Positions 20,704-22,418 of a stretch of DNA of 64,000 bases are shown in pieces (position 1 is the stretch's first letter; every line of letters starts with the position of its first letter). Location of the stretch: assembly GCF_988243305.1 (NCBI RefSeq), contig NZ_OZ547136.1; one strand, 5' to 3'. Below the pieces are notes generated by a model. The model was given only the letters and a program-made list of their open reading frames with translations, had not been told where the DNA came from and did not search any database. The position numbers were made by a program, and so were the translations under genes.

Positions 20704-21456
20704 TTATTGCAGCAGAAACTTCTCGAGGAACTGGCGGGTGCGAGGCTGCTCGGGATCTGCAAATAACGCTTTTGCGGCCCCCTGCTCGACTATCCGCCCC
20801 TGGTCCATAAAGATCGCCCGGTCCGCAACATCCCGGGCAAAGCTCATTTCGTGCGTCACAATCACCATCGTGCGCTTTTCCTGCGCCAGCTGGCGGATGG
20901 TGTTCAGGACTTCGCCCACCAGCTCTGGATCCAGCGCCGACGTTGGCTCGTCAAACAAAATCACTTCAGGACGCATAGCCAGCGCTCGCGCAATCGCGAC
21001 ACGCTGCTGTTGACCGCCAGACAAACGACGTGGATAGCTGGTTTCTTTACCTGCCAGCCCAACTTTCGCCAACAGCTCGCGAGCGCGCACCGTGGCCTCT
21101 TCTTTCGGTTCGCCTTTGACGATCACCGGCCCTTCAATAATGTTCTCCAGCACCGTACGATGCGGAAACAAATTAAAGTTCTGGAAGACAAACCCGACGT
21201 GCTGACGCAACTGGCGAATCAGCGATTTTTGCTGACTTAATGAACGTGCAGTATCAATAGTGATATCGCCAACGGTGATGGTTCCCGCTTCCGGTTGTTC
21301 CAGCAGATTTATGCTGCGTAGCAACGTGGTTTTGCCGGAACCACTCGGACCGATAATTGCCACTACTTCGCCAGGCTTTACCTCGAGGTCGATACCGTGC
21401 AGCACCGTCTGACCGTGAAATTTTTTCACCAGGTTCTTAACTTCAATGGCACTCAT
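20704..21456 (-). CDS. tcyN: L-cystine ABC transporter ATP-binding protein
   Basis: 250-aa ABC ATPase, Walker A GPSGSGKTT, signature LSGGQQQR. Confidence 0.9.
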   Translation of the reverse strand: MSAIEVKNLVKKFHGQTVLHGIDLEVKPGEVVAIIGPSGSGKTTLLRSINLLEQPEAGTITVGDITIDTARSLSQQKSLIRQLRQHVGFVFQNFNLFPHRTVLENIIEGPVIVKGEPKEEATVRARELLAKVGLAGKETSYPRRLSGGQQQRVAIARALAMRPEVILFDEPTSALDPELVGEVLNTIRQLAQEKRTMVIVTHEMSFARDVADRAIFMDQGRIVEQGAAKALFADPEQPRTRQFLEKFLLQ

Positions 21457-22121
21457 TTTGGTTCTCTCTCCTGGCGATTAAGTTGATTCTCAAAATGGTT
21501 CTGCAACGTCGATAACACTGTCGCCATGATCCAGTAGATGAGCGAAGCCGCCAGATACATGGTGAACACCTCCAGCGTACGCGAGGTAATCAACTGCGCC
21601 TGACGGAACAGCTCCGGCACCTGGATTGTCGCGGCCAGCGACGTATCTTTTACCAGGCTGATAAAGCTGTTCGACAGCGGCGGCAACGCCACCCGCGCCG
21701 CCTGTGGCAAAATCGCGCGACGCATGGTCTGCCATGGCGTCATACCAATACTGGCAGCAGCTTCCCACTGACCTTTATCAATAGAAGAAATGGCGGCGCG
21801 CAGCGTTTCGGCAGCATAGGCGGCAGTGTTTAGCGACAGACCAATCATTGCTGACGGAATGGGATCTAGTTCGATGCCAAACTGCGGCAGGCCGTAATAG
21901 ATCATAAACAGTTGTGCGATGAGTGGCGTACCACGAAAAATAGAGATATAAAAACGCGCCAGCCAGCGCACGGGCCAGATTGGTGAAAGGCGCATCAGCG
22001 CGAGAATAAACCCTAGCAGTAAGCCAAAAAACATGCCGCCGATACTGAGTTGCAGCGTATACCCAGCCCCTTTCAGCAGGAACGGCAAGGAATCAATAAC
22101 CAGTTGTATACTTTCTTGCAT
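21453..22121 (-). CDS. tcyL: L-cystine ABC transporter permease
   Basis: 222-aa polar amino-acid ABC permease; 4-nt overlap with tcyN. Confidence 0.9.
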   Translation of the reverse strand: MQESIQLVIDSLPFLLKGAGYTLQLSIGGMFFGLLLGFILALMRLSPIWPVRWLARFYISIFRGTPLIAQLFMIYYGLPQFGIELDPIPSAMIGLSLNTAAYAAETLRAAISSIDKGQWEAAASIGMTPWQTMRRAILPQAARVALPPLSNSFISLVKDTSLAATIQVPELFRQAQLITSRTLEVFTMYLAASLIYWIMATVLSTLQNHFENQLNRQEREPK

Positions 22122-22135
22122 GAGCGTTTCCGGAG

Positions 22136-22418
22136 CTAAACGTGGGGATGATAGGCGAACAGCGCAGGCGCGCCGCCGGTATGAATAAACAGAATCGGCC
22201 CTTCATCTTTGAAGCGTTTCTGACTGATACCGTCAATCAGCCCCGCCATCGCTTTTCCGGTATACACAGGATCAAGCAGAATGCCTTCCAGCCGCGCCAG
22301 CAATTTCACTGCTTCCATGCCTTCGTCGTTCGGCACGCCGTAGCCAGGTGCAAAATAGTCATCCCAGAGTAAAATTTCCGCTGATGCGGTCAGCTCCAGT
22401 TCTTTCGCAATCGCCTGT
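22136..22418 (-). pseudogene. dcyD: 3' fragment of D-cysteine desulfhydrase gene dcyD (codons ~235-328), separated from its 5' part by the prophage
   Basis: Frame reads [94 protein letters not shown]; similarity stops at 22418/22419 where prophage end begins. Confidence 0.85.

Follow-up and report, generated by a model that had tools for sequence, protein, structure and literature searches.

A 64,000-nucleotide stretch of contig NZ_OZ547136.1 (assembly GCF_988243305.1), called the window in this study, was found to carry a Mu-like prophage inserted in dcyD, the gene for D-cysteine desulfhydrase, upstream of the cystine importer genes tcyL and tcyN. The window is DNA of an Escherichia coli chromosome. 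Its minus strand carries uvrC, uvrY, sdiA, tcyN and tcyL in order, followed by an open reading frame (ORF) containing the C-terminal part of DcyD. The window was compared with a set of 5,426 complete E. coli genomes. Positions 20500-22418 (1.9 kb) matched NZ_AP022298.1 at 100% identity and 5,363 further genomes at 95-99%, where the matches bore the RefSeq labels tcyN, tcyL and dcyD. A query of tcyN, tcyL and the dcyD 3' part was matched in a single piece in 5,373 genomes. RefSeq annotation of two uninterrupted loci, L001 (NZ_AP022298.1) and L002, showed the order sdiA-tcyN-tcyL-dcyD-tcyJ-fliZ-fliA with all genes co-oriented, which confirmed the arrangement tcyJ-dcyD-tcyL-tcyN assumed in the first-pass annotation of this DNA. 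In the window, tcyJ keeps its own upstream region and its linkage to fliAZ. The coordinates of the features are collected in Table 1.

The junctions of the prophage were located by aligning the window to the empty site of the near-identical strain NZ_AP022298.1, from which the flanks differ by 2 single-nucleotide polymorphisms on the left (6.9 kb) and 7 on the right (2.5 kb). The left host flank ends at 22422 and the right host flank begins at 61497. In the empty site the sequence is CGCCTGT-TGTA-GGTTAACC, with a single copy of TGTA, while the window has one copy at each junction. The left junction reads ...CGCCTGTTGTA/TATAGCGCGG... and the right junction reads ...CCTGGTTACA/TGTAGGTTAACC..., the slash marking the boundary. 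The duplication in the window is 4 bp, an upper bound that is fixed by the known empty site. Since the site is uninterrupted in NZ_AP022298.1 and the duplication is clean, the prophage arrived by a genuine transposition event. The first-pass statement that about 39 kb of prophage parts tcyL-tcyN and the dcyD 3' end from tcyJ and the dcyD 5' part was upheld by these exact junctions. Its boundary at 22418 falls 4 bp before the actual edge of the host DNA, at 22422, because TGTA at 22419-22422 is the duplication, and the difference is immaterial.

Table 1. Features of the host locus and the prophage in the window.
Feature	Position	Strand	Basis
tcyN (yecC), ATP-binding subunit of cystine ATP-binding cassette (ABC) importer; intact	20704-21456	-	250-aa ORF; protein identical to NZ_AP022298.1
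tcyL (yecS), permease of cystine ABC importer; intact	21453-22121	-	222-aa ORF; protein identical to NZ_AP022298.1 (L001)
dcyD 3' fragment, codons 235-328 and stop; severed from its start and promoter	22136-22422	-	colinear with L001 to 22422; translation QQAIAKEL...HPHV*
Target-site duplication TGTA, left copy	22419-22422	.	empty-site alignment
Mu-like (Sp18-family) transposable prophage, 39,074 bp, apparently intact	22423-61496	-	PHROG profile matches, MuA tblastn, relatives
Presumed transposase-binding sites R1-R3, direct copies of TTTGATAC(C/T)	22440, 22462, 22497 (22440-22505)	+	motif scan
mom homologue, last prophage gene	22551-23288	-	PHROG 1384, E=2.8e-83; RefSeq 'protein mom' in related prophages
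com homologue (translational activator of mom)	23242-23442	-	PHROG 6417 and 13819; 201-bp Com gene annotated in relatives
Gin-type DNA invertase	26917-27489	-	profile search
Tail-fibre-assembly gene, opposite to invertase	27980-28501	+	
Tail-fibre gene	28533-29414	-	
MuB-like transposition ATPase	57128-58069	-	PHROG 296, E=6e-110
MuA-like DDE transposase, 696 aa	58143-60233	-	PHROG 310, E=1e-211; tblastn
Ner-like early regulator	60235-60483	-	PHROG 769
Repressor gene, true start probably internal	60522-61235	+	PHROG 3037, E=3e-59
Presumed transposase-binding sites L1-L3, inverted 9-mers: GGTATCAAA at 61376 and 61471; AGTATCAAA at 61324	61324-61479	-	motif scan
Target-site duplication TGTA, right copy	61497-61500	.	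empty-site alignment
dcyD 5' fragment, codons 1-234; ORF enters prophage end, stop at 61484	61497-62200	-	translation
Candidate -10 element CATAAT of dcyD(-tcyLN) promoter	62235-62240	-	scan, 8/12 match; -35 weak; predicted
Intrinsic terminator after tcyJ: GGCGCT-TTCACT-AGCGCC and T6	62284-62261	-	sequence
tcyJ (fliY), periplasmic cystine-binding protein; intact	62305-63105	-	one amino-acid difference from L001

The distribution of the insertion among the complete genomes was then considered. dcyD was present in 5,376 of them; the median was a single place per genome, the match was unbroken in 5,372, and only 4 of the 5,376 had no place covering at least 80% of the gene. Neither junction occurred in any of the 5,426 genomes. 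The insertion in dcyD is therefore rare, strain-specific and probably recent. No decay was seen in the prophage or in the downstream genes tcyL and tcyN.

The prophage interrupts dcyD in codon 235. The resulting 5' product consists of DcyD residues 1-234, through Leu234, followed by the phage-encoded residues HVTR. Intact DcyD has 328 amino acids, and its alignment with the Salmonella enzyme of known structure (4D8T) covers the full length. The truncated product keeps the pyridoxal phosphate (PLP) lysine (GGNK51LRK) and lacks Tyr287/Thr288 (YTGK) and the HTGG314 segment, and with them the C-terminal third of the PLP fold. Structural work on the Salmonella enzyme reportedly identified Tyr287 as catalytic. 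Because the C-terminal third of the fold is lost, including Tyr287, we infer that the truncated DcyD is almost certainly inactive and that the allele is a dcyD null. A rescuing second copy elsewhere in the genome is unlikely, since nearly all E. coli genomes have just one copy of dcyD. The loss of D-cysteine desulfhydrase proposed in the first-pass annotation is thus well supported.

The same annotation had placed tcyL and tcyN under a promoter shared by tcyJ and dcyD, and this probably needs correction. A canonical intrinsic terminator follows tcyJ. A T-run is present on the plus strand as well (62267-62284), which makes it bidirectional. Ohtsu et al. (2015) likewise described a probable terminator downstream of fliY, as well as a putative dcyD-yecSC operon whose genes dcyD, yecS and yecC were jointly induced by H2O2 (PMC4383340). 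The candidate -10 element lies about 20 nt past the tcyJ terminator and 35 nt before the dcyD ATG. Only 14 bp separate the dcyD stop from the tcyL ATG, and tcyN and tcyL overlap by 4 bp, so the promoter of tcyLN must lie in or upstream of dcyD. Co-orientation and a spacing too tight for separate promoters are what is expected of a dcyD-tcyL-tcyN (dcyD-yecSC) operon. The relevant promoter is probably the one just upstream of dcyD. The promoter region upstream of dcyD is now 39 kb from tcyL.

The DNA remaining in front of tcyL was scanned for promoters. No sigma-70-like site matching at least 9/12 consensus positions was found on the minus strand of 22122-22900, and a looser scan of the retained 287-bp dcyD fragment gave no match even at 8/12. 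The 14-bp spacing, the lack of a promoter-like site in the retained 287 bp, the putative operon and the terminator after tcyJ make a polar loss of tcyLN expression the likeliest outcome in the lysogen; an altered expression, as proposed earlier, is at least plausible. Mu insertions are classically strongly polar. In Mu insertional mutagenesis (Mu being the 'mutator' phage), genes downstream in an operon are likewise separated from their promoter.

The sequence evidence leads to the following account. An Sp18-family Mu-like phage transposed into codon 235 of dcyD and left the TGTA duplication and an apparently complete prophage of 39,074 bp. tcyL and tcyN are intact, but in the lysogen they most likely have no or very low transcription, the pattern of a classical polar mutation. 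Production of TcyJ would continue from the tcyJ promoter and those of fliAZ, but the protein would be without its membrane partner. The cell would then have to import cystine through a second transporter, TcyP (YdjN) (PMC4383340, PMC7373191). Transcripts from the mom end could reach tcyL only when the late genes are on, that is, in lytic growth. The reading as a whole, with dcyD null, tcyLN mostly silent and read-through from mom confined to lytic growth, was given a probability of about 0.72.

Several points weigh against the silence of tcyLN. Consensus scans miss promoters that are weak, activator-dependent or recognized by factors other than sigma-70. One weak 8/12 match, ATGAAA-N16-AAAAAT, is present at 22462-22435 in the AT-rich R end. 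The dcyD-tcyLN operon is only called putative in PMC4383340. tcyL and tcyN show no decay, which is uninformative if the insertion is recent, and no terminator was predicted between mom and tcyL, so low-level read-through is possible.

One alternative is expression of tcyLN from a cryptic or normally minor promoter in the 287-bp dcyD fragment or in the R end of the prophage, in which case the insertion would kill only dcyD. The perfectly intact state of tcyL and tcyN, the weak R-end match and the insensitivity of consensus scans agree with it. The scan results for 22122-22900 and for the dcyD fragment argue against it, as does the 14-bp spacing, which gives no room for an intergenic promoter; the literature also handles dcyD-yecSC as one unit (PMC4383340). 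Expression of tcyLN from such a promoter is unlikely.

Transcription leaving the prophage through the mom end was considered next. The first-pass annotation had offered this as an alternative. On this reading tcyLN would come under phage control, with com-mom or accessory genes upstream of it that are expressed in the lysogen as the source. mom is transcribed toward the dcyD 3' fragment and tcyL; its stop codon is followed by 128 bp up to the edge of the prophage, and the distance to the tcyL start codon is 430 nt. From 26831 to mom, every gene shares the strand of tcyLN, and no minus-strand intrinsic terminator was predicted in the interval from the mom stop (22551) to the tcyL ATG (22121). 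An open frame at 22558-22136 also bridges the phage end and the dcyD fragment. The orientation and the lack of a predicted terminator are compatible with the proposal. However, com-mom of Mu is a late operon that depends on a late activator and on Dam methylation and is not expressed in lysogens. The window copy keeps com, mom, a gene for a Mor/C-type activator and three GATC sites upstream of com, near 23575, 23508 and 23495, and this GATC cluster resembles the Dam/OxyR-controlled region upstream of Mu mom. No promoter matching at least 9/12 was found in the tcyLN direction within 1 kb, and expression in the lytic phase would be irrelevant to a dying cell. A supply of tcyLN expression by com-mom in the lysogen is unlikely. 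Because com-mom is late in Mu and the window copy keeps com, the late-activator gene and the three GATC sites, read-through from mom would be a minor contributor, relevant only during lytic growth. As the main source of tcyLN transcripts it is quite improbable.

Two further observations concern the mom end. The bridging frame (minus strand) is a chimeric one of 140 codons. It has a GTG start in the R end, overlaps the mom stop, continues into the dcyD 3' fragment in the reading frame of dcyD and terminates 14 nt short of the tcyL start codon. Translation of a transcript from the mom end could proceed up to tcyL, and expression of the frame is hypothetical. Two of the three GATC sites (23490-23580, minus strand) lie within a 9-bp inverted repeat, AATCGATCG...CGATCGATT.

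The orientation at the L end was also analyzed. The repressor gene is transcribed out of the prophage across the L end, and its direction is antisense to that of the dcyD 5' fragment. No plus-strand terminator was predicted from the repressor stop to 62267, where the bidirectional tcyJ terminator (62267-62284) begins, and repressor transcripts may run antisense through the dcyD 5' fragment to that terminator. In the opposite direction, no strong minus-strand terminator was predicted from 61496 to ner, with two weak hairpins at 61110-61098 and 60984-62. Given its orientation, the dcyD promoter would send transcripts into the prophage at the L end, antisense to the repressor and in the sense direction of the early ner-A-B operon. 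A regulatory wiring of host and phage might be imagined from this, in which a sulfur-starvation-responsive dcyD promoter feeds the early operon, the repressor gene reads into the dcyD 5' part and late mom transcription reaches tcyLN. Such a wiring is very doubtful. If it were true, sulfur limitation or oxidative stress could push the lysogen toward induction.

A wrong joining of a prophage contig to the dcyD region by the assembler, which prophage repeats can mislead and for which nothing specific speaks, was rejected as extremely improbable, since the base-exact junctions jointly rebuild the empty site with a 4-bp duplication and bear the signature of the Sp18 family, seen at six other independent insertions of such prophages.

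The inserted element was identified by PHROG profiles, by tblastn with MuA and by its relatives. Early-to-late genes of the prophage lie on the minus strand, so that the L (repressor) end is at 61496 and the R (mom) end at 22423. Profile matches were obtained for transposase, MuB, Ner, repressor, Com, Mom, Gam, a Mor/C-type late activator, DNA invertase and tail fibre. A MuA-type DDE transposase adjoining a MuB-type ATPase, a divergent repressor/Ner pair at the L end and com-mom at the R end, found here by PHROG matches and gene order, characterize Mu-like transposable phages. All large ORFs are full length compared with the relatives, and the prophage appears to be intact and complete.

Inverted arrays of presumed transposase sites at both ends, another feature of Mu-like transposable phages, were found by a motif scan. 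The 9-mer TTTGATACC has three forward copies at the mom end and three inverted copies at the repressor end, and the outermost copy lies 17 bp from each prophage terminus. The L1-L2 gap is about 95 bp, a Mu-like spacing.

The target duplication was examined in the wider family. Seven independent Sp18-family insertions had both ends read, and the duplication was 4 bp in all seven. The junctions behind this count are those of the window (22419-22426/61493-61500), L003, L005, L006, L007/L008, L009/L010 and L011/L012. The seven duplications are TGTA, TGCG, TGCG, TGCC, TGAC, CGAA and TAGT. The seven insertion sites are dcyD (window), flgL, a terB-like gene, recX, meaB, citF and ydeE. In the orientation of the window the element ends are 5'-TATAGCGCGG...CCTGGTTACA-3'. 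The L end finishes with ...TTACA-3' in the window and with CA-3' in the other copies except L003, which has TA. The R end finishes with ...GCGCTATA-3' (...GCTATA-3'), that is, with TA-3' and not CA-3'. Bacteriophage Mu has a 5-bp target duplication and 5'-TG...CA-3' termini. The family thus departs from Mu sensu stricto in its 4-bp duplication and in the TA-3' of its R end.

Other readings of the ends were tried. A Mu-like duplication of 5 bp, set in several registers, failed in every case against the empty site and the six other insertions. The leading TG of the duplication as part of the phage end was ruled out by the two insertions with CGAA and TAGT. No duplication length is stated for the Sp18 family in the literature found on that family. 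For Citrobacter rodentium CRP99, insertion-site repeats of '3-7 bp' are mentioned. The 4-bp duplication and the TA-3' R end of so widespread a prophage family may be of interest for the geometry of Mu-type transpososomes.

The relatives of the prophage were then compared. By tblastn, its MuA is 98% identical to that of an 'inserted Bacteriophage Mu-like phage' in two Shiga toxin (Stx) phage records, LC727881 among them, and 79% identical to that of the Yersinia phages vB_YpM_5 and vB_YpM_6. At the DNA level, the right 7.6 kb of the prophage has matches longer than a few hundred bases only in the two Stx phage records. Between 84 and 89% of the prophage length aligns at 90-95% identity to the E. 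coli prophages L003, L005 and L006; for L005 and L006, which are Sp18-like, about 84% aligns at about 90% identity. The alignments place the prophage in the family of Sp18 of E. coli O157 Sakai. Sp18 and its relatives, such as Phi804-3 and the Mu-like phage in Stx phages (LC727881), belong to this same family, and the window copy differs from them in its site, dcyD, and in some accessory regions. Sp18 of O157:H7 Sakai is described as intact, with relatives at strain-specific sites (PMC2669165, PMC7430833), and it is reported to disrupt the sorbose operon (sorM) in that strain (PMC7430833).

Mu itself was absent from the megablast matches of the prophage, which is a distant relative of Mu at the DNA level. 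The two share the DDE transposase with MuB, the repressor/Ner pair at the L end, com-mom at the R end and a Gin-type invertible tail-fibre segment. They also share three transposase-site repeats per end and an essentially random intragenic insertion with a short duplication. Roughly 280 extra copies of each prophage end were found at many loci of the complete E. coli genomes. Reading of the R-end flanks gave 23 distinct sequences, and a scan of viral contigs for the R end gave 16 short contigs, which also showed diverse insertion sites. Varied host sites, each with a short target duplication, are typical of Mu-like transposable phages, and here they are seen in the 23 flanks and in the direct duplications of the seven insertions read at both ends (7/7). 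CRP28, CRP99 and CRP49 of C. rodentium are likewise Mu-like enterobacterial prophages, which transpose actively and at random; no effect on dcyD or tcyLN is described for them. RefSeq protein accessions of the related E. coli prophage L003 include the WP_0129086xx range, which is presumably of C. rodentium origin.

Some regions of the prophage were variable or carried genes without a clear role. The invertase and tail-fibre genes at 26917-28501 make up a host-range segment that can invert, like those of Mu and Sp18, and its sequence varies between related prophages in blocks that do not align. A 684-aa protein without known function (24777-26831, minus strand; PHROG 143, RefSeq 'DUF6645') is encoded between the invertase and com-mom and is followed by two small genes, DUF826 and DUF1378. 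This region is accessory cargo at the R end of the Sp18 family and varies between copies, with no alignment to L005 or L006. A 'tRNA-OTHER' is listed by RefSeq in relatives (L003 21232-21311, L004 24148-24227), where it separates the virion-morphogenesis gene from the minor-head gene. No tRNA was found by ARAGORN or Rfam anywhere in the window prophage, where the equivalent position is about 43476-43596, and an Rfam scan of the whole window gave three host tRNAs and nothing else.

The insertion is an ordinary case of Mu-type insertional mutagenesis. The family of Mu-like prophages responsible is a known one, and no new question is raised. The earlier interpretation was largely right, with the promoter reassigned to the region upstream of dcyD. 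From the arrangement of the locus, an effect on tcyLN expression is likely, and we infer that this expression is lost in the lysogen. The strain should be scored as dcyD-negative, that is, as D-cysteine-sensitive and unable to obtain sulfur from D-cysteine. A further defect is probable in the TcyJLN cystine importer, which is part of the cysteine/cystine shuttle that shields the periplasm from H2O2 (PMC4383340). The main value of the finding lies in the annotation and phenotyping of this strain, which provides a clean natural case of a Mu-like prophage as a mutagen in wild E. coli.

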